Assembly: GCA_030748495.1 (NCBI GenBank)
Contig: JASMLX010000102.1
Span: 1-23,969, forward strand
Direction: 5' to 3'
Length of the DNA stretch: 23,969 bases
DNA from: Candidatus Poribacteria bacterium
GTDB lineage: Bacteria > Poribacteria > WGA-4E > UBA9662
This document shows, piece by piece, positions 6,281 to 20,625 of the stretch. Position 1 is the stretch's first letter. Each line of letters opens with the position of its first letter. The notes under the pieces were generated by a model. The model ran no database searches. It saw only the letters and a program-made list of their open reading frames with translations, and was not told where the DNA came from. The position numbers were made by a program, and so were the translations under genes.

Positions 6281-8218
6281 TTACGGTGACCAGAGGACGT
6301 AGGTCGGTATATCGAAAATAGTTCCCAGCAAAGACCAGAGGCTAACAAACACGTAATCGCCCATCACCAAGCCAAGGAAAAAGGGAGCCGCTTGCTGGTA
6401 AGTTTTAAGCCCAAAGAATTTGAGAAGGCTGAATTTAACTAGCCAACCGAGAAAAACTGAGAACCAGAAATCGGCCAACCCGCCCCAGGTGGCCGCCGTC
6501 ATGACATAACCGATGGGGTGGAACGGCCACCATATGAAGCGTAACCGGAGTGCGTATAAGATCGAGGTCAAAATTGCCCCAATGCCCATCGACTGTGTGC
6601 CGGCTAAATTGATGCCCGTTGGGTTATTGATCCAGCGTTCCAGCCGGCGACTGAAGACCTCTCGTCCAATTCCGACGATGTAGCCGTGTACCGATAAAGC
6701 CCCATACTTATACATCAGATGTAGGAAAGCCCAGAAAGAGGCAATAGCCCCGATGATAGTAGCCAGCATCATTACCCAGATCAGGTGACGGCTGTTAATA
6801 TGGGTGCGCTCAGCGATCTTGAAAGCTTCCAACTGGTTCGGCATTGGATGAGAAACGTTAAGCCGGTTCAACCAGTAGTAGAAGGAGATAATGGTCAGGT
6901 TATTAGTACCGACCAGTCTCGGACCGAAGGTGACCGATAATAGACGAGCAGGATCGAGGGCTAAAATCTCGTGGGAAGGGGGACCAAACTCGGCCCGAAC
7001 ACGTGTTACTCCAACGGCCATAACAAGGAAGATCACGAAAAAGCCGACGATCCCCCAGACCGACATCCCCGCTTGTAGAGAAAAAATCGTCAGTCCCAGC
7101 AGCCCTAAAATCAAGCCGGAAACAGCGGTTCGGTAGCGCATCGGTTCCTGTGAATCGTCGCTCTCGGCACTGCTATCGGCAAACTTTCGCCAGACGGCCA
7201 GCAGATGTTTTCGCGTTCCCCAGATACCGAGTGCCCCAACTGCTAGCCAAGCGCCACCTGCTCGTTCTGCCATATAAAGTTCACCAACGCCCATCATACC
7301 GGTGCGGATAATCCGCTCAGTTTTGCCAAACAGGAAGAAGAACCAGGCCGACATCGAAATATCGAGCGGAACAAAAAAGGTCAGGCCGATAATGAAAGGA
7401 TAGGCTGATAGGCTAATCCAGCCGACCGCGTTCCAAGGTTTTTCGCTAAACCAGTGTGAAATCGAGTAGTGGTTGAGATGAACGGCTGGGATTTGGGGAA
7501 ACAGGTAGTTTAGACCGGCTAAGATCTCCAATAGTCCCGCAATGCTGAAACCTATCCACATCAGCCCACTTTTGTAGAATCTCTGTTGTCCGGCCACCAT
7601 CTGAACCGGCAGTTGGACAATCGGATAGGCCAGTTTCTCCTGCTCTGTCCACTTGGCACGAATTATCGCGTTGAAGCAGATCATCACAAACCAGAGCAGT
7701 GCGATAAACCCGGTCCAGGTTAGAACCGGAACCAGCCAACCTCCCAGGTGTTTAGGCAGATAGAGCGTGGAGTCGCCAGTAAAATAGGCGTCGAGGACCT
7801 CTAGTTTAGGAACGAACCAGTCGGGAATATAGTGCCAAAAAAGCTCTGACCATTCGTTTTCTGCTGTAGCAAAGCGGAAAGGGTAAGCCAGAGTTCCAAT
7901 TAGAAAGGTCATCATGGTGTGTCCACCAAAGGTCGAGACCATCACTACCATGATATAGGCCACCAGCATCTCTTGAGCTGTCAACGCGCTTCGGGCCGCA
8001 AACCGCTTCAAGGGTAGGTTAACTACAATTAGAAAAAAGAGGCTAAAAACAGCGTTAAAGAAGAGAGAAACGAAGTTGAGCAGGAACTGAGGACGGATCA
8101 GTTCAGCCGCATAAGCTAACCAGTAAGCGTTCCAGATACAGAGCAGTGTACCGATCAGCAATGATCTAAAAGTAATGCCTAGCTCTCTCAGGGCTCTCTT
8201 TTGGCTTTCGATCGGCAT
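6281..8218 (-). CDS. large polytopic integral membrane protein (~14 predicted TM helices), function unknown
   Basis: The 645-aa ORF is made of long hydrophobic stretches throughout, for example LLIGTLLCIWNAYWLAYAA, FLLNFVSLFFNAVFSLFFLIVVNL and IGYVMTAATWGGLADFWFSVFLGWLV. It has no match to transporter signatures I can recognise (no MFS, ABC or GT-C DD motif). It lies 94 nt downstream of the LamG gene on the same strand. Confidence 0.7.
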   Translation of the reverse strand: MPIESQKRALRELGITFRSLLIGTLLCIWNAYWLAYAAELIRPQFLLNFVSLFFNAVFSLFFLIVVNLPLKRFAARSALTAQEMLVAYIMVVMVSTFGGHTMMTFLIGTLAYPFRFATAENEWSELFWHYIPDWFVPKLEVLDAYFTGDSTLYLPKHLGGWLVPVLTWTGFIALLWFVMICFNAIIRAKWTEQEKLAYPIVQLPVQMVAGQQRFYKSGLMWIGFSIAGLLEILAGLNYLFPQIPAVHLNHYSISHWFSEKPWNAVGWISLSAYPFIIGLTFFVPLDISMSAWFFFLFGKTERIIRTGMMGVGELYMAERAGGAWLAVGALGIWGTRKHLLAVWRKFADSSAESDDSQEPMRYRTAVSGLILGLLGLTIFSLQAGMSVWGIVGFFVIFLVMAVGVTRVRAEFGPPSHEILALDPARLLSVTFGPRLVGTNNLTIISFYYWLNRLNVSHPMPNQLEAFKIAERTHINSRHLIWVMMLATIIGAIASFWAFLHLMYKYGALSVHGYIVGIGREVFSRRLERWINNPTGINLAGTQSMGIGAILTSILYALRLRFIWWPFHPIGYVMTAATWGGLADFWFSVFLGWLVKFSLLKFFGLKTYQQAAPFFLGLVMGDYVFVSLWSLLGTIFDIPTYVLWSP

Positions 8219-8312
8219 TATTGGCTTAGTATCCGCTGATCGGGTGCTGCTCAGTTAGCAGAAAAACATGTGAATTGAGACTTACATTCACTATTCACAA
8301 ATAACAGTGGGG

Positions 8313-9101
8313 TTATTGGACTTTGAGTTCGCTCCACTTCAACGGCAGTTTATCGTCGGGCTCAACCGACAGCCCACGATCGGAGTTAGCATTTTGCTTG
8401 ACCTCAGCCTCTGTTAGCAGTCGATTATAGACAGCGAACTCATCAATCAGACCTTCATAATAGCCAAATTCACCATCGCAGCGACCATCTTGCCCCATAT
8501 TAACTCGCTGTTTAAAACCGTCTTCTGGGAACTGGTTGACGGCCATCTGTCCGTTACCAGTAGCGTCTCCATCTACGTAATACTGGATATTACCCGCTTT
8601 ACCTTCCACTGTCACGGCTACGTGATGCCACTTATCATCGGCTACCTGAGCTTTGGCATCCTTGGCGTTGCCCACCCACCCGACATCGAAGGATAAAACG
8701 TTATCTACAATCCACCAGGTCTTCGGCCCTTTGTCGTCACCGCCAGGAACTCCCGTTTTGGCAAACAGGACACCGGCAACTTTGGCTCCAGTCTTGATCC
8801 AACACATCCAAGCAAAGTCTTGGCTAAAGTCGAGTTCTTTGGCCCCATCGAACTGGACGAAATTAGCTTTATCGGCATCGAAAGCTAGAGCTTCACCGAT
8901 TTTACCTTTAACCGATTTCAATGCCCCTTGAATGTTACCGTTATGTTTGCCGAAGCCGTCGACCACTTTCTTGCCTTGCATTTTACCGGAATCAAAGCTC
9001 CAGTAACTGATCAGATCTTTTTCTACGATTTCTGTGAACCCATCAGGAACACGATCATTTTTCTCATCAAATGTTATCAGCGTAATACTTAAACCGTCCA
9101 T
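8313..9101 (-). CDS. LamG (laminin-G_3 / concanavalin A-like lectin/glucanase) domain protein, no signal peptide
   Basis: LamG_3 hallmarks are present: LISYWSFDSG, GALKSVKGKIGEALAFDADKANFVQF, FAWMCWIKT, KWHHVAVTV, QYYVDGD and IDEFAVYNRLLTEAEV. The in-frame upstream sequence runs to a stop (TAA at 9141-9143) with no ATG/GTG/TTG. The protein therefore begins MDGLSITLITFDEK and lacks a Sec signal. Confidence 0.8.
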   Translation of the reverse strand: MDGLSITLITFDEKNDRVPDGFTEIVEKDLISYWSFDSGKMQGKKVVDGFGKHNGNIQGALKSVKGKIGEALAFDADKANFVQFDGAKELDFSQDFAWMCWIKTGAKVAGVLFAKTGVPGGDDKGPKTWWIVDNVLSFDVGWVGNAKDAKAQVADDKWHHVAVTVEGKAGNIQYYVDGDATGNGQMAVNQFPEDGFKQRVNMGQDGRCDGEFGYYEGLIDEFAVYNRLLTEAEVKQNANSDRGLSVEPDDKLPLKWSELKVQ

Positions 9102-9414
9102 AAAACAGGACGGTCTATACGTTGCCTCCCTAGTTTGACTTTAGTTATAGTTAAAAGGGTTAAAAGCCATGTTTACCCTTTTGCAGAACATAAACGATGT
9201 CCATTACTTTTTAGTGTAACAGATCTCTTGCACAAGTCAAGGTAAGCATCTAACACAAAAATGCACATACCCCTTGTCCCGCTACCGCTAGTTCCCACAT
9301 ATTTCTCTCGCCTAAGGGACTGGCACTTCGTTTAGGGTCGCGTTACCCATTCGTCAGGAGTAATCAAGGCTTTAGAATTTTAGAGCGTTGGGCAACTGAA
9401 CAAGAACAGAATGT

Positions 9415-9738
9415 GTGCCGGATAGAGAACCTGGCATATTTCGAGTATCGGAATCATCACTCACCGCATTTTACAGAGGACACTGTATGCGATCGGAGGA
9501 GTGGATTGAGGTGAACGCACATGTGGACATCGCCTTCGTGGTGAATCCGGCTGCCGGCGATGACGTAGTTGATCGTTACATTGCGGAGATATACGATCGG
9601 CACGAAACGCGGTGTGCTGATGTGGTGCTGATCCAATCCATCATTCGAGACAAGAAGGTCAAGAGACTGGAACTATTCTGTGAACATGACCGGATTCTCG
9701 TCCCTCCCGCTGAGGTAGGATACAAAATCATAGGGTAG
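9415..9738 (+). CDS. hypothetical small protein (possible true start at 9487)
   Basis: ORF of 107 aa. The internal ATG at 9487 (MRSEEWIEV...) is preceded by AGAGGA, which would give 83 aa. No recognisable family. The gene is isolated between two non-coding stretches. Confidence 0.35.
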   Translation: MPDREPGIFRVSESSLTAFYRGHCMRSEEWIEVNAHVDIAFVVNPAAGDDVVDRYIAEIYDRHETRCADVVLIQSIIRDKKVKRLELFCEHDRILVPPAEVGYKIIG

Positions 9739-9891
9739 GATTTGTCAGAGCAACTTCTGCAGAGTCTTGATGGGCGACTTCGTTGAGGTTCGCTTGAGGC
9801 GCAGACACACGTATCGTTCCACAAGGCCGCGATCAACGACGAAGGCTTCTAAGGTCTCCCTAAATAAAGCTAGATAAATCGACTGTAATTG

Positions 9892-10917
9892 CTAATTTGA
9901 TAAAATTTCTGCAATAGATCTGGCAAAATAGGTTAGGATCAGATCGGCACCTGCCCGTTTGATAGCGGTCAGCATCTCCATGGTGCTAGTCGCCTCATCC
10001 AGCCAGCCCAGCTTAGCGCTGGCTTTTATCATAGCGTACTCCCCACTGACATTGTAAGCGGCGACCGGTAAATGGATTGCTGACTTGACCGCCAAAATAA
10101 CGTCTAAGTATGCCAGTGCCGGTTTTACCATCACTATGTCCGCCCCCTGATTAACATCAGCTATAACTTCACGGAGTGCCTCTTGTCGATTGGCTGGATC
10201 CATCTGATAAGTTTTCTTGTCACCATGTTTGGGCGCTGAGTCGAGCGCATCTCGGAACGGTCCATAAAAAGCCGAAGCATACTTGGCGGAGTAGGCCAGA
10301 ATGCTAACCTCGGAAAAACCGTTTTGGTCTAAGGCCTGTCGAATATGCTTGATTCGGCCATCCATCATATCCGATGGCGCAACAATATCGGTTCCTGCTT
10401 CGGCTTGAGAGACAGCCATTCCGGCTAAAATATCGAGTGTTGGATCATTCAAGATCCGCCCTTCTTCGACCAGCCCATCGTGGCCATCGCTGGAATATGG
10501 ATCCATTGCGACATCGGTAATAACAGTTATCTCTGGTACCGCTAATTTAACTTCTCTAACCGCTCGTTGTAACAGGCCATCAGGATTGGTTGATTCGGTC
10601 GCTAACGGATCCTTGGATTCGTCCGTCAAAGCAGGGAAAAGTGCGAGTGCTGGAACTCCCAAATGATAAGCCGCTTTAGCCTCCTCTACAATTAGATCTA
10701 TACTTAAACGAAAGAAATCAGGCATGGACTCAATCTCAATCTTTTGGTTTTTGCCTTCAATAACGAATAGAGGAAGTATTAAATCTGAAGGATGAAGTTG
10801 GGTTTCCCGAACCATATCACGGATCGAAATGGACTTTCGATTACGACGAGGGCGGGACAGCATCGGTATCCGTTTCGAAACACTGGTGCCGTTCGAGGAA
10901 GAGTCATTGGAGGTCAT
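9892..10917 (-). CDS. hemB: porphobilinogen synthase (delta-aminolevulinic acid dehydratase), Asp-rich Mg-type active site
   Basis: HemB blocks are present (PMLSRPRRNR, DLILPLFV, GVPALALFP, DVAMDPYSSDGHDG, SGEYAMIKA, with the active-site Lys region). The metal-site motif is DxAxDxY...GHDG (aspartates, not cysteines), so Zn-independent. The alternative start at 10863 (MLSRPRRNR) would give the usual length. Confidence 0.92.
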   Translation of the reverse strand: MTSNDSSSNGTSVSKRIPMLSRPRRNRKSISIRDMVRETQLHPSDLILPLFVIEGKNQKIEIESMPDFFRLSIDLIVEEAKAAYHLGVPALALFPALTDESKDPLATESTNPDGLLQRAVREVKLAVPEITVITDVAMDPYSSDGHDGLVEEGRILNDPTLDILAGMAVSQAEAGTDIVAPSDMMDGRIKHIRQALDQNGFSEVSILAYSAKYASAFYGPFRDALDSAPKHGDKKTYQMDPANRQEALREVIADVNQGADIVMVKPALAYLDVILAVKSAIHLPVAAYNVSGEYAMIKASAKLGWLDEATSTMEMLTAIKRAGADLILTYFARSIAEILSN

Positions 10918-11318: not shown

Positions 11319-12089
11319 TTACCCCTCTGTTGAGTGGGTGCGACTCGCTTGAGTTAGTGCACTTACGAGATCTACCGGAACGGGAAAAATTAAAGTTGAA
11401 TTTTTCTCGGCCGAAACTTCGATCATGGCTTGTAAGTAACGGAGTTGGATCGAGGTAGGATCAGCACTTAATATCTTAGCCGCTTCAGCTAATGTTGACG
11501 CCGATTCTAATTCTCCGTCGGCGTGTGTGGCTTTAGCCCGTCGTTCTCTTTCTGCTTCAGCCTGTTTTGCCATTGCCCGTTTCATTTCGACCGGCAAATC
11601 GACATGTTTAATCTCTACACCCAGGACCCGAATTCCCCAATCATCACTATGGTTACGAATGGTTTCTTCCAAATCCTGATTGAGTTTTTCTCGTTCAGAC
11701 AACAGGTCATCCAGTTCAGCTCGTCCTAGCACACTACGCAGGGTAGTTTGTGCAAAGTTGGAGATGGCAAAACTAAAATCCTCTACTTCAATCACGGCCT
11801 TCTCTGGATCGACGACCCGAAACCACAGAACTGCATTAACGCTAACAGAAACGTTATCCTTAGTAATCACGTCTTGCGGGGTAACATCTTGGACAATAGT
11901 TCGCATACTAACCCGTTCCATCCTATCGATCCAGAATGGCATCAGTAAAACGAAACCGGGCCCTTTAACGGCATTAAAACGCCCTAGCCGAAAGACGACT
12001 GCCCGATCGTACTCTTTTAAGATTCGTAACGACGTGGCGATCAGTACCAGCCCTACGACTGCACCAATACCATACCAGATAGTTGGCAT
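11319..12089 (-). CDS. SPFH/band-7 (stomatin/prohibitin-like) membrane protein
   Basis: An N-terminal TM helix is followed by [32 protein letters not shown], the SPFH core, then a coiled-coil region rich in [12 protein letters not shown] strong SD (AAGGAG) lies 7 nt upstream. Confidence 0.88.
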
Positions 12090-12123: not shown

Positions 12124-12558
12124 CTAGATTGTATCTGTAAATTCGACGGATAGTGGAATCTGTTGCTTGACAAAATCGATCACAGCCCCTTTATTATTAC
12201 CAAAGCGGACGTATACCCCCCGAAAGTTTTCTAGGCGAGAGGGCTGAGCAAACGGACTAAGCAGAATACCGTTCTGATCGATATAGAAACTGCGGAAGTT
12301 AGTCCAGTCTTGCTCGAAACAGTAAAGGAAAGATTGAATTGTCACCTTCTTATTATCAACTTGATAGTGAAATGGTACGAAGTATTTATAGAGTGCCCCA
12401 GCGAGGAAAAACAGAGACAGTAGTGTGAGATAAACCGATTGAGATGCAAAATAGACGACAGCAATTAACATAATCAGAAAAGCGATCAGCACTGCTGATC
12501 GCTTCCAATTGTCAAAGACGGGATGAACAACCCAACTCAGCAAAGCGCCGTTCCCCAT
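12124..12558 (-). CDS. small membrane protein: 2 N-terminal TM helices + ~85-aa C-terminal domain (possibly bacterial PH-like/DUF304-like), first gene of the SPFH-HIT-hemB operon
   Basis: The 144-aa product has hydrophobic segments at residues ~22-40 and ~43-60. The C-terminal YKYFVPFHYQVDNKKVTIQS... does not fit the NfeD OB-fold pattern usually partnered with SPFH. The family assignment is tentative. Confidence 0.5.
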   Translation of the reverse strand: MGNGALLSWVVHPVFDNWKRSAVLIAFLIMLIAVVYFASQSVYLTLLSLFFLAGALYKYFVPFHYQVDNKKVTIQSFLYCFEQDWTNFRSFYIDQNGILLSPFAQPSRLENFRGVYVRFGNNKGAVIDFVKQQIPLSVEFTDTI

Positions 12559-14906: not shown

Positions 14907-15216
14907 AAAAACCTCAGCGATTGATTTTGCAAACTACACATTATTCCATAGAATAAGCAGCAGAGTCAAGCATAACCGCTAGGGCGGTGTTTAATGTAGA
15001 TGTTACGTGGGTTCTGGATATTTGGTAGGCTTGGCATCCTCCAACCTGTTCATGGAATGCCAACTGATTTGCTGATAGTGGAACTGTAACACCGTGAGTG
15101 AGGTTGGAAGAAGGCTGGTTCTAGCTGCCAATCTATTTATTATTGGTTGTACCTATTACGTAATATAACCAAAGGCCCATAGAGCAATTTCATAATAAAA
15201 TGATTATAATTCTAAG

Positions 15217-15842
15217 ATGGCATATTCGATAGATTTCAGAAGAAAAATATTAGAAATAAAGGAAGATGAAAAATTAAGTTTAGACCACTGTTCCAAACAA
15301 TTCAACGTTGGTCGAGCCACGATCTTCAGATGGACAAAAAGTATCCGGCCAAAGCTGACTCGAAATCAACCCGCCACCAAAATTAACCTGGAATAATTAA
15401 CCGAGGGTCTAGAAACATATTCCGAGGCTTATTTGAGCCAGAGAGCCCAGCGACTAGATGTTTGCCTAAGTTGTGTCTGGTAGGCAAAAAGACTCTCCAA
15501 TTGCCTATAAAAAACGTTACCGTATCCTAAAGGTGAGGATGAAAAGCGATCAATCTTTAAATCAATTATTGGTCACTACCAAACAATAAAACGCCCCTGG
15601 TCTATATTGATGAAAGTGGTTTTTCTGTGGATAGCCCTCGAACACATGGCTATAACCAAAAAGGCAAACGCTACTATGGAAAGCATGATTGGCGAGCAAA
15701 GGGAGGCATTAATTCAATTGGGGGCTGATTCAATCGTAAACTGCTTGTCTACAGATTATATGAAACAGCGATTAATGCCGATATATTTATGGATTGGATT
15801 ACCTCGCTTATATATGATCTTTTTATTATGGAATCGCTATAG
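15217..15842 (+). mobile_element. IS630/Tc1-mariner-family transposase remnant (pseudogene; frameshifted and 3'-truncated)
   Basis: 15217-15396 encodes MAYSIDFRRKILEIKEDEKLSLDHCSKQFNVGRATIFRWTK..., the characteristic N-terminal HTH of IS630-family transposases, ending at a stop after 59 aa. 15601-15730 in another frame encodes YIDESGFSVDSPRTHGYNQKGKRYYGKHDWRAKGGINSIGG, the conserved DESG box. A third frame at 15768-15842 gives AINADIFMDWITSLIYD then stop. The segment containing the catalytic DDE distal residues is missing. Confidence 0.7.
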
Positions 15843-15959
15843 GTAGCTAGGCTGAAATTCAATGATAATTGATAGCCACCGTTTCTCTTACATTATAGCC
15901 TTAGATAGTGAAGGTATAACAGACGATGAGTATGGATAATCGACTCGGGGTGACTTCGT

Positions 15960-16544
15960 TCAGGTAAATTGAATCTCGGTCTGGGTGATGGCTAGAGCGA
16001 GTTCTTCCGTATAGGTGTGAAGTGTACGAAAGGCCAATTGTTCCCCGTCGGCTCGAAGGATGTCGATCGTTGTGGTAGGTGGAGGATGGTCGCCATTGTA
16101 GCTAGGGAAGGTTTGTTGTAATCGGTAGATTTGCTTATCTACAGGCGGTTGCGATTGATTAATAAACAGCTCACGATTATCGTACCGGTTCAATTCCAAA
16201 TTGACATGATAACGCAAATCTGCTGAGTGTTGATAGCAGCCACTTCTGAAAGGGTCAACCAACCGTATCCGGCCATCGGTTGGCAAACCCGTCTTTGCCG
16301 CTGAGATGACCTCCGCTATTTCTACGGTTTCAGTCTGTATATTGACGACGTGGCTACTGCCAATAATCCAAAATTCTGCTTGATAGCCACGTCGTTGGAG
16401 TTGGGTTTGACGAAAAATTTCAAATAGATTCGGATCAAACCGATAGCTGTAGAGTCCAAACTGAAGATTGGAAACCTTCTGCTCGATGTAGTGTTGGCTT
16501 TGCCGTATGGATTGTTGGTTCAGCGGGTTTTCTGCGCGGTACAC
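15960..16544 (-). CDS. hypothetical cytoplasmic protein (last gene of DUF4178/DUF350 cluster)
   Basis: The 194-aa product has no TM segment or signal peptide and sits 16 nt downstream of the DUF350 gene. I do not recognise the family (it contains GYQAEFWIIGSSHVVNIQTE and DGRIRLVDPF). Confidence 0.5.
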   Translation of the reverse strand: MYRAENPLNQQSIRQSQHYIEQKVSNLQFGLYSYRFDPNLFEIFRQTQLQRRGYQAEFWIIGSSHVVNIQTETVEIAEVISAAKTGLPTDGRIRLVDPFRSGCYQHSADLRYHVNLELNRYDNRELFINQSQPPVDKQIYRLQQTFPSYNGDHPPPTTTIDILRADGEQLAFRTLHTYTEELALAITQTEIQFT

Positions 16545-16560
16545 GGTTCAAAGGGTGGAT

Positions 16561-16872
16561 CTACAATATTGCAGCAGCCACTATTAACCCCAAGGCAATC
16601 ATAATACCTGCTACGATGACCCCTGCGGCTGTATTGTTCTTCTCCTCAATCTCCTGGTCCAAGCTAAAAGGGGTTATCCAGTCGAAGACTTTGAAGCCGA
16701 TCATTAAAACGATGATACCAAGAAGGCTATAGATCAGAGCCGCGGCTAATCCAAGCGGCAACTCTGCCCAGAAATTGGCGGCAGTCGCATTGACTACACT
16801 TTGTTGTGCGGTGGCTGTGCCCGTAATAACGGCAATGACAATAATCCATTTGGTTATAACGCTGTTTTTCAT
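16561..16872 (-). CDS. DUF350-family small membrane protein (YjfL-like)
   Basis: 103 aa. It has the DUF350 hallmark FKVFDWITPFSLDQEIEEKNNTAAGVIVAGIMIALGLIVAAAI (FDW.TP....EI...N.A..I..AG..I motif) after an N-terminal hydrophobic/signal-like segment. An AAGGGA RBS is present. Confidence 0.75.
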   Translation of the reverse strand: MKNSVITKWIIVIAVITGTATAQQSVVNATAANFWAELPLGLAAALIYSLLGIIVLMIGFKVFDWITPFSLDQEIEEKNNTAAGVIVAGIMIALGLIVAAAIL

Positions 16873-16938
16873 AATTCCCTTTCTCTGGCTAGAATAGATG
16901 GTTAATCCGTATTGAGTCTAATTGAGAATAGTAGCATT

Positions 16939-17553
16939 TTAGCTGATACTACCGCTAGTACTATAAATATCGACCTCAGAAGGCCGAATAAAATGTCCAA
17001 TGGATGCCTCGTAAGAGTGTTGTCCCCATTGTTGGACACTGATGACCTTTTCGTGTTCTTCGTCTTCAAAATCCCAAAAATAGAAGGATTCCCCCCGGGT
17101 GTGACAGTTTTCGTACAAGCAATCTTCGCCAGATCTGCTCAGATAGTAGATCGTTTCTTCATAGTCGAACCGTCCAGATTGGTTCTGGCTGAACTGAGCT
17201 AGTTCTTCGAGCCGCAGATTCAACTGGTCGAAGTCAATCTCTTGCGTGAGTGTAATAGACGAGACTGTTGGATTGGCATTAACGGGGATGTCAGTTTGCC
17301 ACCCTAACCAAGATGTTTCGCCCTCCATTCCAGAGAGTTTCAATTCAAACCACTCCTCACCATTGCTAGCATAGCGATTTTTTTGTTCCACAAAATACTC
17401 GATGCTTTGAATCAATACCACACCACCAACATCCAATCGATCCAGATTTAGCTCCTCGGCGGGCGCAGAAGGTTCAGTTTTCTTCGATTGCCGCAGCCAG
17501 ACGAGACCTACAATCAAGGCAATAATAATCGCTAAGAGGATAAGCCAAATCAC
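16939..17553 (-). CDS. N-terminally membrane-anchored DUF4178-like protein
   Basis: 204 aa. The GTG start overlaps the stop of the upstream lipoprotein gene (GTGA, 17550-17553). One N-terminal TM helix (IWLILLAIIIALIVGLVWL) is followed by two similar half-domains containing EY...EEWFEL.L...WLGW and the FDYEETIYYL...FYFWDFE motif. These resemble the internally duplicated DUF4178 pattern (G..EY.V......EW.EY.L......WL). The family call is from memory, not a search. Confidence 0.55.
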   Translation of the reverse strand: MIWLILLAIIIALIVGLVWLRQSKKTEPSAPAEELNLDRLDVGGVVLIQSIEYFVEQKNRYASNGEEWFELKLSGMEGETSWLGWQTDIPVNANPTVSSITLTQEIDFDQLNLRLEELAQFSQNQSGRFDYEETIYYLSRSGEDCLYENCHTRGESFYFWDFEDEEHEKVISVQQWGQHSYEASIGHFIRPSEVDIYSTSGSIS

Positions 17554-18653
17554 TTACCGGTTCCACGACTTCCACCCCGAAATGAACTGCTACTTCGAGT
17601 TGTGGAACGGCTACGACTTGATGAAGAACTGCTTCGACCGAACCCGCCACCACGGGAAGAGGTAGTACCACTTCTAGTAGCGGAAGTCGAACGGTTGCTG
17701 GTTGTCCGACCGAATGCACCACTTCGAGTGGAGACCGTTTTTTGGCGAGCCGCCATAGTTCGCTTCGATTTCATTTGCTGGATGGCTTTCGGTGCTTGTG
17801 TTCGGCTTTTAGCTTTGCTGCTTCGTGCTACCCTTTGAGGGGCAGTACTGGTAGATGGTGCAGATCTGTAACGGGTAACAGTTCTGGTTCGAGTCACAGT
17901 TCTGGTGGCTACTGGGCCGTGCCATCCCCCGTAGTACCGTGGGTACCAGCCACCGTACCAACCCGGACGGTACCAATGGTAAGGACCGAATAAGACATCA
18001 CGAATCACCATGTAGCGAAGATAGGAGTCCATCCAGCTATGGTCACGGGCGTGATAGCTGCTCCGATAATGCGACGGTTGTCCTTCGTAGGCATAAGAAT
18101 TCGTTTCGGCATTGACAACCATTTGTTGCGAAGTTTGATCAAAAGTAATCGATAAGGCGACCAATTCAATTCCTGTTTTAGCGACTTGATCCCAATCGAC
18201 ATCGTAAGCCTCTGGATCTTTGGGATATGTGGTCGGATCAGGTACTCGAACAGAGTAGACGGCAGCCTGACCTTGAACCGATTCCGGTACCACCAGTAGC
18301 GGGTCTAAGTTGCTGTCCTCGTTCAGATCGACACGGTAATTGACCTCTGGATTACTGATAATTTTATGGCTTAACTTTCGAACCACCTGTTGTTGAAACT
18401 TCTCAGAATCCGGTTTCTCGGTCGGGGTTAATTCTTGTAAAACTTCTCGCATCACATCTGGTAAAATAGCGGGATTTAATTTATCCGTCAAATCGATTTT
18501 GACCGAAACGTTGGATTGGGCAACGCCAACCGAATAAGTTTTGGAACTACGAGCAGGAGGGGCGTCGTCGCTGTTACCACACCCGATGCAGATCACCAGT
18601 ATTGCCAGCAAGGTCAGATGAGCCCGGCCAATAAGTGAAGAAGGGTTATTCAT
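17550..18653 (-). CDS. lipoprotein with folded N-terminal domain, aromatic/Gly patch and ~120-aa Arg/Ser/Thr-rich low-complexity C-terminal tail
   Basis: 367 aa. A lipobox-type signal is present (LTLLAILVICIGCGNSD; Cys in LVICIGC context). A ~200-aa globular region follows. Next comes YHWYRPGWYGGWYPRYYGGWHGP, then TRTVTRTRTVTRYR...SRGGGFGRSSSSSSRSRSTTRSSSSFRGGSRGTGK. The ORF stays open through the repeat DNA. A GAGGAA RBS lies 9 nt upstream. Confidence 0.7.
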   Translation of the reverse strand: MNNPSSLIGRAHLTLLAILVICIGCGNSDDAPPARSSKTYSVGVAQSNVSVKIDLTDKLNPAILPDVMREVLQELTPTEKPDSEKFQQQVVRKLSHKIISNPEVNYRVDLNEDSNLDPLLVVPESVQGQAAVYSVRVPDPTTYPKDPEAYDVDWDQVAKTGIELVALSITFDQTSQQMVVNAETNSYAYEGQPSHYRSSYHARDHSWMDSYLRYMVIRDVLFGPYHWYRPGWYGGWYPRYYGGWHGPVATRTVTRTRTVTRYRSAPSTSTAPQRVARSSKAKSRTQAPKAIQQMKSKRTMAARQKTVSTRSGAFGRTTSNRSTSATRSGTTSSRGGGFGRSSSSSSRSRSTTRSSSSFRGGSRGTGK

Positions 18654-18868
18654 TTGATTGCGTTCCTCGCTAAAGTCGATCGCCGGCGGTGGCCACCGAA
18701 AGGGTCGATTACTTTAACTCCTATTCTGAGCCGTTAAGAAGTGCGTAAGTTAAAGATTGCCTGCCAATTATAGAAGAAAATCTTGGCAAATACAAGCTCT
18801 TACACTGACTTGAGAAAAAAGAGCGACTTACCGTTCGATAGGAGCAATTTGGATCTACTGGTATCTAC

Positions 18869-19834
18869 TTACGGTTGCCAGTCCAGCAAGACCCCCAACG
18901 TTTTCTCCGGTGTATGCCACAACAGATCGAATGCTTCTTTGGCTTCCGTATAAGGAAATAGATGGGTTATCATCGGCTGAATTTGGATCATCCCTTGTTC
19001 AATACTGCTCAAAGCACGCTGTGCTATTTGTACTGGAGATTCATCGGTTAAAATGCCGGCTACTAGCCGTTTTTGCATTATTTTAGAGGCGTGAAGGGGA
19101 AGCGGCTGTTGCTGGTAGAGGGCAATCAACTGGATTGTACCTCGCTGAGCGACCATGTCTTGTGCTTGCTCAAACGATTTAACCCCTGCGTAGCCGCCGA
19201 CGCAATCGATAACCAGATCGGCACCGCGGCCCTTGGTCAACTGTTTTACCGCTTCGACAGGATCCACTTCCGAGGCGTTGATCACCTCATCAGCGCCAAG
19301 TTTTTGCGACAGTTGACAGCGTAAAGGGAGAGTGTCAACCGTGATGATCTGCTCGGGTTGGCAACCGCGTAGAAGTTGCATGATCAAACTGCCAACCACG
19401 CCTTGCCCCAGGACTACAACCTGATCGCCAGCTTTTACCCCAGAAGAGTCAACCCAGGCAGTAGCAGATCTAGCCAATGGCAGGAATGTGCCTTCTTCGA
19501 AGGAGACATTCTCTGTTAGTGGGACCACATTCCCTTTAGAGGAATCGACTTCACCAACCGCATACTGAGCGTGTGGTGCAACCACCATAACTCTCTGTCC
19601 GGCCCGGTATTCGGTAACCTCCGAACCAACCTGTTCAATTGTGCCGGTTAGCGAGTAGCCCATGATTGAAGGTGCAACCGCCTCTTCTAAGATGTACCGG
19701 CGAAACAGTTCAGACCCACGACTGATTAAGGTTTTAGAGGTACGAACCAAGACTTGACAACTGTTGATCTCTGGAATCGGCGTATCCTCTAACTGAATGT
19801 TTCCCATTCCTTCCGGTTTTATGACACGAATCAC
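18869..19834 (-). CDS. MDR-superfamily (zinc-ADH-like fold) oxidoreductase lacking canonical zinc-ligand residues
   Basis: 321 aa. Rossmann motif VVVLGQGVVGSLIMQLL is present. The GHE and Cys catalytic-zinc ligands are absent (SIMGYSLTGTIEQVG replaces GHE.G), and so is the structural-zinc Cys cluster. The RBS AGAGGGGG lies 7 nt upstream. Confidence 0.8.
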   Translation of the reverse strand: MIRVIKPEGMGNIQLEDTPIPEINSCQVLVRTSKTLISRGSELFRRYILEEAVAPSIMGYSLTGTIEQVGSEVTEYRAGQRVMVVAPHAQYAVGEVDSSKGNVVPLTENVSFEEGTFLPLARSATAWVDSSGVKAGDQVVVLGQGVVGSLIMQLLRGCQPEQIITVDTLPLRCQLSQKLGADEVINASEVDPVEAVKQLTKGRGADLVIDCVGGYAGVKSFEQAQDMVAQRGTIQLIALYQQQPLPLHASKIMQKRLVAGILTDESPVQIAQRALSSIEQGMIQIQPMITHLFPYTEAKEAFDLLWHTPEKTLGVLLDWQP

Positions 19835-20169: not shown

Positions 20170-20625
20170 ATGAAAACACTTACCCTTTGGAAATCAGCAA
20201 ACGAACCAGGCAATCTAGATCAATTTTTCGATAATCTTTTCGGTCAGAATTTTAGCCCAGCGTACTTCGGCCGTGGCAAACCCGCTCAAGGTAAAGGCGA
20301 TTGGTCGCCGGCTATCGACTTATCGGAAACCGACGATGTCTTTGAAGTAACAGTGGAAGTAGCGGGTATTCCAGAAGATCAGGTTAAGCTAACGATCACT
20401 GATAATGTGCTGGCCATTAAGGGCGAACGGCCAGAGACCGCAACTTCGGAGTCAACCTACCTTCGGCAGGAGCGCCGATTCGGCCAATTTCAGCGAGCCA
20501 TCTCTCTACCACCGAATTTGCAAACCGACCAAGCAAGAGCCAGTTTTAGTAACGGCCTACTGACGGTTGTCATTCCAAAAGCTGAGGCCGTAAAACCAAA
20601 GGAGATTGAGATTCAGGTTTCTTAA
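20170..20625 (+). CDS. Hsp20/alpha-crystallin family small heat-shock protein
   Basis: 151 aa. The alpha-crystallin domain is present (WSPAIDLSETDDVFEVTVEVAGIPEDQVKLTITDNVLAIKGER..., ending with the IEIQV I-x-I/V tail). A GGAG RBS lies 7 nt upstream. Confidence 0.9.
   Translation: MKTLTLWKSANEPGNLDQFFDNLFGQNFSPAYFGRGKPAQGKGDWSPAIDLSETDDVFEVTVEVAGIPEDQVKLTITDNVLAIKGERPETATSESTYLRQERRFGQFQRAISLPPNLQTDQARASFSNGLLTVVIPKAEAVKPKEIEIQVS

Follow-up and report, generated by a model that had tools for sequence, protein, structure and literature searches.

A reduced DUF350 gene cluster of Candidatus Poribacteria, very probably a PspA-free, polyamine-linked envelope module

Described DUF350 systems and the Poribacteria cluster

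Gene clusters encoding DUF350, DUF4178, and DUF2617 proteins are widespread, reaching both Mycobacterium tuberculosis and Escherichia coli, and have no demonstrated function. DUF350 operons that lack PspA and are associated with polyamines are known from comparative genomics only (Ravi et al., 2024, PMC11237479). Here we describe a cluster of four minus-strand genes at positions 15960-18653 of a 23,969-nt stretch of DNA from Candidatus Poribacteria bacterium (assembly GCA_030748495.1, contig JASMLX010000102.1, positions 1 to 23,969; hereafter the window). In order of transcription, the genes encode a lipoprotein (gene 1), a DUF4178 protein (gene 2), a DUF350 protein (gene 3), and a DUF2617 protein (gene 4). 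The window thus holds DUF350, DUF4178, DUF2617, and a lipid-anchored protein side by side, the gene set of the system as a whole, and we are highly confident that its four genes are a reduced version of the polyamine-linked envelope module that is centred on DUF350 and lacks PspA. A link to such modules had already been drawn in a first-pass annotation, made from the sequence alone, and it agrees with the published survey (Ravi et al., 2024, PMC11237479).

The closest described system is the Rv2597 operon of M. tuberculosis, in which a DUF4178 protein with a transmembrane segment (TM+DUF4178) is followed by DUF2617, by a DUF4247 protein with a signal peptide (SIG+DUF4247), by the membrane protein YjfL-TM, and by a membrane-fused spermine-synthase-like domain (TM+Spermine_synth) (PMC11237479). 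Some PspA-free versions add a polyamine oxidase and an S-adenosylmethionine (AdoMet) decarboxylase (PMC11237479). In Shewanella, the SO_3765 operon reads LipoSIG+Ctha_1186+Low-comp, YjfL-TM, TM+Spermine_synth, CesT/Tir, PspA, DUF4178, and RHH (PMC11237479). Ravi et al. predict that DUF4178 is intracellular and propose that what lipoproteins sense at the cell surface is tied both to the dynamics of the membrane and to aminopropylation or the level of polyamines (PMC11237479). Experiments have been reported for distant analogues only. In E. coli, two peptide-spermidine ligases, YgiC and YjfC, have been described, with natural peptide substrates that are reported to be unknown, and ygiBC plays a part in the growth defect of tolC (PMC11762307).

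With Rv2597-Rv2601 of M. tuberculosis, the window shares a TM+DUF4178 protein, a DUF2617 protein, an exported or lipid-anchored protein, and a DUF350 membrane protein. The TM+Spermine_synth fusion of the Rv2597 type is found in relatives of the window cluster, as is the amine oxidase described for its variant. The window differs from the Rv2597 type in gene order, in its exported protein, where a lipoprotein that is unrelated to DUF4247, has no Pfam model, and carries a long Ser/Arg/Gly tail takes the place of DUF4247, in a half-length DUF350 protein that bears a signal peptide, and in having no spermidine-synthase-like gene. Membrane-fused spermidine-synthase-like proteins, with which DUF350 clusters, reportedly make no spermidine, a finding attributed to Li and co-workers in 2019.

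Like SO_3765, the window has DUF4178; unlike it, the window has DUF2617 and lacks both the CesT/Tir-PspA dyad and the RHH regulator. The SO_3765 operon opens with a low-complexity-tail lipoprotein, then DUF350 and TM-Spermine_synth, and exactly this order recurs in four of the relatives surveyed below (L027, L032, L035, and L036; L numbers denote loci of relatives and comparison systems). The Ctha_1186-type architecture, with its lipoprotein signal, domain, and low-complexity tail, is present in the window lipoprotein, and a lipoprotein gene lies directly upstream of DUF350 in several phyla. The likeness seen here is one of architecture, and any sequence relationship between Ctha_1186 and the window domain would lie beyond the reach of HMMER. 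Taken together, the cluster is an M. tuberculosis-type gene set with a Shewanella-type partner, a low-complexity-tail lipoprotein, that comes from a different, undescribed family.

In the yjfIJKLMC and tolC-ygiBC loci of E. coli, YjfL is a DUF350 protein and YjfM and YgiB are DUF1190 lipoproteins. As in the window, DUF350 is found beside a lipoprotein, and the yjf and ygi systems (PMC11762307), likewise the window's module, are linked to polyamine chemistry. Compared with these systems, the window lacks an ATP-grasp ligase, PspA, DUF2170, and DUF2491. The phage shock protein (Psp) system is similar in that both are thought to serve inner-membrane integrity, and DUF350 modules often adjoin PspA-family genes. 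The window differs from it in having no PspA/IM30, PspB, PspC, or PspF, and no PspA-family Pfam match is present among the genes called on the matching 27-kb contig.

The partners of DUF350 and DUF4178 had been regarded as unusual in the first-pass annotation. This view does not survive the comparison, since DUF2617 is listed as a partner for the Rv2597 operon, and for SO_3765 the published table gives DUF350 after a lipoprotein whose tail is of low complexity. The kind of module is known from comparative genomics, and the partners are largely the expected ones. What is new is modest: a rare lipoprotein family without Pfam assignment, a half-length DUF350 protein with a signal peptide, and a core that persists without an adjacent aminopropyltransferase gene. 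As the organism is uncultured, the value of the locus is that of a comparative data point rather than a discovery.

Gene layout and predicted products

Four consecutive open reading frames make up the cluster, all on the minus strand. Gene 1 (17550..18653, 367 aa, ATG start) encodes the exported lipoprotein, gene 2 (16939..17553, 204 aa, GTG start) a transmembrane (TM) helix followed by DUF4178, gene 3 (16561..16872, 103 aa, ATG start) a half-length DUF350 protein of the YjfL family, and gene 4 (15960..16544, 194 aa, GTG start) a soluble DUF2617 protein. The boundaries follow the open reading frame list, and the products were assigned from family alignments for gene 1 and from Pfam for the other three. 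Genes 1 and 2 share the overlap AAGTGATT, with the TGA stop of gene 1 lying inside the GTGA at which gene 2 starts. Between genes 2 and 3 lie 66 nt, and a ribosome-binding site, AAGGGA, precedes the DUF350 ATG; the GTG of gene 4 follows a 16-nt gap. These are the overlap and gaps that had been noted at first pass, and reading of the junctions bears them out. Such tight junctions fit translational coupling.

Upstream of gene 1 lies a 215-nt intergenic region (18654..18868, minus strand), which from its sequence is the likely promoter region. It contains a perfect TATAAT at 18772-18767 and, with a 17-nt spacer, a weak -35 element, TTGTAT. A consensus promoter scan did not call this site, and a promoter at 18772-18767 is therefore offered as a suggestion only. 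Nothing convincing was found as an intrinsic terminator or strong sigma-70 promoter flanking the operon. The possibility of a defence system was also considered and rejected, as none of the four proteins matched the PADLOC anti-phage defence models.

The DUF4178 and DUF350 assignments that had been made by motif are both upheld by Pfam. Gene 2 matches PF13785 (E = 9.1e-15, 55.4 bits, cut-off 25) over residues 42-191 and profile positions 2-136 of 136. Its N-terminus reads as a hydrophobic segment at residues 2-19 (IWLILLAIIIALIVGLVW) followed by RQSKK, giving the TM+DUF4178 architecture that is also seen in Rv2597. By the positive-inside rule, RQSKK after the helix suggests that the helix runs with its N-terminus out and its C-terminus in, which would put the DUF4178 domain on the cytoplasmic side of the membrane.

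Gene 3, whose product is named 'DUF350 domain-containing protein [Candidatus Poribacteria bacterium]' by NCBI, matches PF03994 (E = 4.8e-17, 62.7 bits, cut-off 26), with residues 41-102 covering only profile positions 5-65 of 133. The protein consists of a cleavable-looking signal peptide (…TATA/QQ) and one 2-TM repeat around a conserved acidic loop, FDWITPFSLDQEIEEKNNTAAG. The two tandem 2-TM repeats of the full-length form (4 TM, as in E. coli YjfL) are not present in gene 3, while the 8-TM DUF350 proteins of Fibrobacteria match the whole Pfam profile twice. An AxA-type signal-peptide site is also found in the DUF350 proteins of L012 and L030. A cleavable signal peptide with a conserved AxA would place the N-terminus of DUF350 outside and the acidic loop in the cytoplasm. 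The existence of a DUF350 protein with a single 2-TM repeat supports the idea of a modular, oligomeric membrane unit.

Gene 4 had been described as a 194-aa protein without a recognisable family, which turns out to be incorrect. It matches PF10936, DUF2617 (E = 2e-8, 34.9 bits, cut-off 22.3), over residues 37-190 and profile positions 21-159 of 160, and PF10936 was found in all six retrieved homologues. The protein has neither a signal peptide nor a TM helix. For DUF2617, Ravi et al. (2024, PMC11237479) predict an enzyme of beta-sandwich fold in which two His, an Asp, and a Glu are conserved. In 10 Poribacteria DUF2617 sequences, WIIGSSH65V, E78, and H176 are invariant; no Asp is, with D161 and D166 both varying. 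The remaining His/His/Glu set looks like a metal or catalytic site, judging from conservation. Sequence search returned no relative of DUF2617 in the PDB.

The cluster in relatives and a proposed mechanism

An operon-like unit had been proposed from the gene spacing, and its recurrence speaks for it. The identical lipoprotein occurs on 21 contigs from many samples, all with the four genes in the same order, and a contig that is ~90% identical (L044) has the four genes in this order with an alcohol dehydrogenase (ADH) gene and an HSP20 gene upstream. More distantly, a survey of 29 loci in Poribacteria and Fibrobacteria, with one genome per species and a narrow lipoprotein alignment, found the lipoprotein gene in at least 29 species-level genomes, mostly beside some of the other three genes. 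The first-pass annotation had assumed a Planctomycetota setting and proposed a neighbourhood search there, which is the wrong phylum for DNA of Candidatus Poribacteria. The window matches contig JASLPC010000087 of assembly GCA_030745165.1, and its GAPDH and DUF350 proteins are both recorded at NCBI, with identical sequences, for Candidatus Poribacteria bacterium. In related genomes, the genes are conserved as neighbours, contrary to what the first-pass annotation had named as grounds for refuting the cluster.

The fullest clusters (L026, L028, L030, L031, and L038) read lipoprotein, DUF4178, DUF350, flavin amine oxidase, DUF2617, and TM-fused Spermine_synth. The same order without the oxidase is found in L016, L022, and L029, and the window and its near relatives have lipoprotein, DUF4178, DUF350, and DUF2617. 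In Fibrobacteria and related genomes (L027, L032, L035, and L036), the lipoprotein is followed by an 8-TM DUF350 protein and TM-Spermine_synth, and L007, L009/L033, and L039 have the lipoprotein and 8-TM DUF350 only. Pfam matches identify the enzymes of these relatives as Amino_oxidase (E = 3e-16) and Spermine_synth (E = 1e-35 to 1e-38), the latter being C-terminal in proteins of ~530-580 aa. In L007 (9986-12595) and in the Joint Genome Institute (JGI) contig of protein P0069, the lipoprotein/8-TM DUF350 pair is preceded by a DUF3604 protein and followed by a large DUF5117/DUF4953 protein, of families that resemble zinc metalloproteases, a context conserved in two samples.

The window itself has no match to polyamine enzymes by tblastn at E <= 1 over its whole length (best E = 1.7), not even a remnant, in line with the initial reading, and none is present in the Pfam list of genes on the matching 27-kb contig. 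Since orthologous Poribacteria clusters carry the TM-spermine-synthase fusion, and some the flavin amine oxidase as well, the simplest reading of the window cluster is a reduced form that lost the polyamine enzymes in this sub-lineage.

The reduced cluster is maintained. Comparison of the window with L044 by the Nei-Gojobori method gave dN/dS values of 0.115 for the whole lipoprotein (0.091 for the globular part and 0.168 for the tail), 0.197 for DUF4178, 0.109 for DUF350, and 0.330 for DUF2617, with 0.145 for the neighbouring ADH gene. Purifying selection on all four genes indicates that the cluster is kept in this form. The four genes could instead be a decaying remnant, left functionless by the loss of the aminopropyltransferase and oxidase genes, as might be suspected from polyamine genes that are missing without detectable trace in the window, from an IS630 fragment and rearrangement breakpoint directly downstream, and from the range of partial clusters in relatives. 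We regard this as improbable: the four open reading frames are intact, dN/dS values of 0.11-0.33 are near that of a neighbouring housekeeping-type gene and weaken the idea of decay, and the identical arrangement is found on 21 contigs from many samples and in the 90% relative. A core that remains under selection after the loss of both enzymes may be separable from the polyamine enzymes, and would either have a function of its own or use enzymes encoded elsewhere in the genome.

On this basis, the module can be tentatively assembled into a mechanism. The lipoprotein, with its calcium-loop-like motif and basic disordered tail, would be exported and lipid-anchored in the periplasm. Two-TM DUF350 half-units would probably pair into a four-TM bundle as in full-length YjfL, with the acidic loop in the cytoplasm, while DUF4178 would be tethered by its TM helix at the cytoplasmic face and DUF2617 would be soluble in the cytoplasm. 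The four proteins may then form one complex across the inner membrane, which is the least certain step, with the DUF350 bundle bridging the periplasmic lipoprotein to DUF4178 and DUF2617. In such a complex, the lipoprotein would read the state of the envelope or periplasm, and that state would be coupled to an enzymatic or assembly activity of DUF4178/DUF2617 at the membrane. In fuller clusters, this activity would be joined with the membrane-fused spermidine-synthase-like aminopropyltransferase and sometimes with the flavin amine oxidase, partners that point to the handling of a polyamine or of an aminopropylated, membrane-associated substrate. The identity of the module together with a membrane-spanning complex in membrane or polyamine homeostasis is, by a modest preference, our best overall explanation of the locus; the mechanism in the detail given here is considerably less secure and is put forward as a possibility.

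Several observations weigh against a fixed four-protein device of this kind. DUF4178 is missing from L012-L014, which have lipoprotein, DUF350, and DUF2617, and the genes are evidently not tightly co-inherited. In nine loci (L015, L017, L018, L020, L021, L023, L025, L034, and L040), the lipoprotein is followed by DUF4178 only, L025 being a short contig that ends after DUF4178. The lipoprotein occurs alone in L019 and L024, and in SAR324 bacteria it stands alone beside cobalamin genes. Given these partial clusters, nothing in the data demands that the four proteins form an obligate complex. For the window genome, the lack of polyamine enzymes was established on one contig, and the AlphaFold2 (AF2) model of DUF2617, built from six homologues, is unusable at a predicted local distance difference test score (pLDDT) of 32. 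Furthermore, all of the mechanistic steps are inference, as no member of the module has been studied by experiment. Some of these loci show further features: in L018, ~1.3 kb (9045-10364) is inserted between the lipoprotein and DUF4178 genes, which are adjacent elsewhere, and in the SAR324-type L041 and L042, the lone lipoprotein (8001-9098) adjoins a divergent cobalamin operon (CbiX/CbiC, CbiD, CbiG, CbiJ, and others).

The same proteins could also be arranged as a solute-handling module, in which oligomeric DUF350 lets polyamines or other cations through the membrane as a small channel or transporter, aided on the periplasmic side by the lipoprotein as a cation- or polyanion-binding accessory, and the gating or processing of the cargo falls to DUF4178 and DUF2617 on the cytoplasmic side. 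DUF350 exists in 2-, 4-, and 8-TM versions of one repeat, a pattern that a pseudo-symmetric pore or carrier would be expected to show; it has an acidic conserved loop; it is repeatedly found beside the TM-fused spermidine-synthase-like protein and amine oxidase; and the DxNxDG-type loop of the lipoprotein gives weak EF-hand and FG-GAP matches. However, no similarity to known transporter families was found in Pfam or NCBIfam, a 2-TM unit of ~80 residues is small for a carrier, and the lipoprotein of SAR324 occurs without DUF350. Solute handling is thus a credible but minority alternative to the envelope-sensing complex.

The lipoprotein family and its tail

Neither Pfam nor NCBIfam gave a match for gene 1. 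Its product begins with a signal peptide and a lipobox-like CIGC (Cys25), followed by a globular alpha+beta domain at about residues 40-222 that carries YSVRVPDP and a DxNxD(G/S)xxD calcium-loop-like motif (VDLNEDSNLDP). A Tyr/Gly/Trp-rich stretch at ~223-250 leads into a Ser/Arg/Gly low-complexity tail that runs to the C-terminal ...GTGK. The aromatic/Gly-rich segment and basic tail together span residues ~223-367 (17553..17987, minus strand; family alignments and AF2). The motifs SGAFGR and RGGGFGR occur here, and residues 289-308 are predicted to form a helix. In the AF2 model, the globular part has pLDDT of 80-90, while the tail is below 50 and predicted to be disordered.

Sequence search retrieved 75 relatives of the lipoprotein, mostly from Poribacteria and Fibrobacterota, and none of them has a Pfam domain. 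Most members have LAGC, LSGC, or LTGC as the lipobox where the window protein has CIGC, and a sub-group without the Cys probably has an uncleaved anchor, to judge from its N-termini. Alignment of the domain shows the invariant VDLNxDGxxDP...VVPE and YSxRVPDP; D54, L59, P65, P123, S134, V137, P138, and P140 are invariant in 29 sequences, and G360, G361, G366, and K367 in 17. An exhaustive search of the globular-domain profile against 1.84 billion cluster representatives returned only 27 clusters at E <= 0.001. The named ones include SAR324-like and deltaproteobacterial metagenome-assembled genomes (MAGs), among them Deltaproteobacteria TL4, as well as a Planctomycetota MAG and Sericytochromatia. 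Shewanella and Chloroherpeton were absent among the ten more distant of the 27 clusters, which were looked up by name. From these searches, the family is small, environmental, and undescribed. One 1782-aa protein (P0156, on a European Nucleotide Archive (ENA) contig of 36.9 kb) matches lipoprotein-profile positions 61-101 (DLNxDG...VVPE) in ten separate stretches, indicating that the calcium-loop-like element occurs elsewhere as a tandem repeat.

The tail had first been described as eukaryote-like, of the RS/RGG type. RSGGFGR-type motifs and a near-invariant ...GG...GK C-terminus are common to the family alignments, and the tail is conserved across this bacterial family and is under purifying selection (dN/dS of 0.17 against L044); it is therefore better seen as a family feature than as a eukaryote-like curiosity.

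By eye, the window lipoprotein resembles YjfM and YgiB, with which it shares a DxDxDG-like loop, a hydrophobic or aromatic stretch, a Ser/Arg/Gly tail with GG[FY]G[RE]S, and a Gly-rich end, and this raised the idea that it is a DUF1190 homologue. The idea was rejected by hhalign, Pfam, and shuffled controls. PF06693 (DUF1190) does not match the window lipoprotein; sub-threshold matches occur in 5 of 29 relatives (best E = 0.0012), and those examined individually were weaker (E = 0.24-0.46), lying in the C-terminal half and mostly in the tail. The hhalign probability for the lipoprotein against DUF1190 is 2.8%, and a C-terminal profile scored 2.8 and 2.4 bits against YjfM and YgiB, values that were equalled by 32 and 61 of 500 local shuffles (z 1.3-1.7). 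The resemblance is thus one of composition and motifs and not of membership: the lipoprotein looks like, and probably behaves like, a DUF1190 protein. The products of yjfM (L011, 2388-3026) and ygiB (L043, 2745-3416) end in Gly-Gly (…RGHWGG and …SRSMGG), where the window family ends in an invariant …GK; each gene is directly upstream of a peptide-spermidine ligase gene, a coincidence that deserves attention.

The window lipoprotein adds a third or fourth unrelated exported partner with the same design of anchor, small domain, and basic low-complexity tail, a recurrence that makes the tail worth testing. The look-alike tail in the unrelated DUF1190 lipoproteins suggests convergence on one function. 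It is conceivable, although we consider it speculative, that the basic tail with GGFGR and ...GG...GK is the working part of this new, rare family and the element that DUF350 modules act on or through. The tail would then be a polyanion- or membrane-binding arm, or the natural peptide substrate of the polyamine-type ligases and aminopropyltransferases of fuller operons, and the four-gene core would operate on its own across the inner membrane, with no dedicated polyamine enzyme.

A conserved, basic, disordered tail on a lipoprotein that can occur alone would also suit a surface adhesin, with the exported protein binding host or matrix polymers and the other genes aiding its export or anchoring. 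This would fit a sponge-associated phylum, and Rv2599 (DUF4247), the exported partner in the M. tuberculosis operon, is reported as an adhesin (PMC3726780). However, the DUF4247 Pfam model matches neither the window lipoprotein nor any of 29 relatives at E <= 1. A cytoplasmic DUF2617 and a cytoplasmic-face DUF4178 have no obvious role in adhesion, and the recurrent polyamine-enzyme neighbours would be left unexplained. An adhesin locus is accordingly a very unlikely account, and the envelope module is preferred.

Flanking genes and the IS630 fragment

Downstream of gene 4, a 1.05-kb spacer (14907-15959) separates the cluster from a GAPDH gene. It has a GC content of 0.395-0.43 and holds a 59-aa helix-turn-helix (HTH) fragment of an IS630-type transposase, which lies outside the module on the plus strand (~15217..15396; HTH_Tnp_IS630, E = 2.8e-7, residues 1-51). 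The IS630 relic noted at first pass is thus real. The similarity between the window and L044 ends at window position 15836, 124 nt downstream of gene 4, and the fragment thus marks a breakpoint of rearrangement on the downstream side of the cluster. Gene order in the flanks is not shared with the clusters of other species, which indicates a fluid genomic context but does not show horizontal transfer.

An accessory origin had been deduced from the relic, and a recently acquired island brought by the IS630 element would be in keeping with a fragment only ~560 nt downstream of gene 4 and with the non-syntenic flanks. The remaining evidence makes this a very improbable origin. The GC content of the cluster, 0.45-0.50, matches that of the window, where low values are confined to the IS spacer, and the single IS fragment has no second copy or inverted repeats that would bracket the cluster. 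The 90% relative retains the cluster along with the upstream ADH and HSP20 genes and differs only downstream. In addition, protein similarity of the lipoprotein is highest among Poribacteria, in keeping with its presence across the species-level Poribacteria and Fibrobacteria genomes counted above.

Immediately upstream of the cluster are the zinc-type alcohol dehydrogenase-like gene (18869-19834, minus strand) and the HSP20 gene (20170-20625, plus strand), both of which accompany the cluster in L044 and L001-L006 and not in other species. An SPFH/Band_7 gene (11319-12089, minus strand; Pfam E = 7e-38), preceded by a 144-aa open reading frame without Pfam match (12124-12558, minus strand), lies ~4 kb from the cluster, past the GAPDH, TIM, and SecG genes. 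Band-7 proteins are among the PSP-associated partners in Ravi et al. (PMC11237479); here housekeeping genes intervene, and the pair and the cluster are probably unrelated. Past the breakpoint, L044 carries at 8362-8820, on the other strand, the C-terminus of a protein that by eye belongs to the ASPIC/UnbV-like family.

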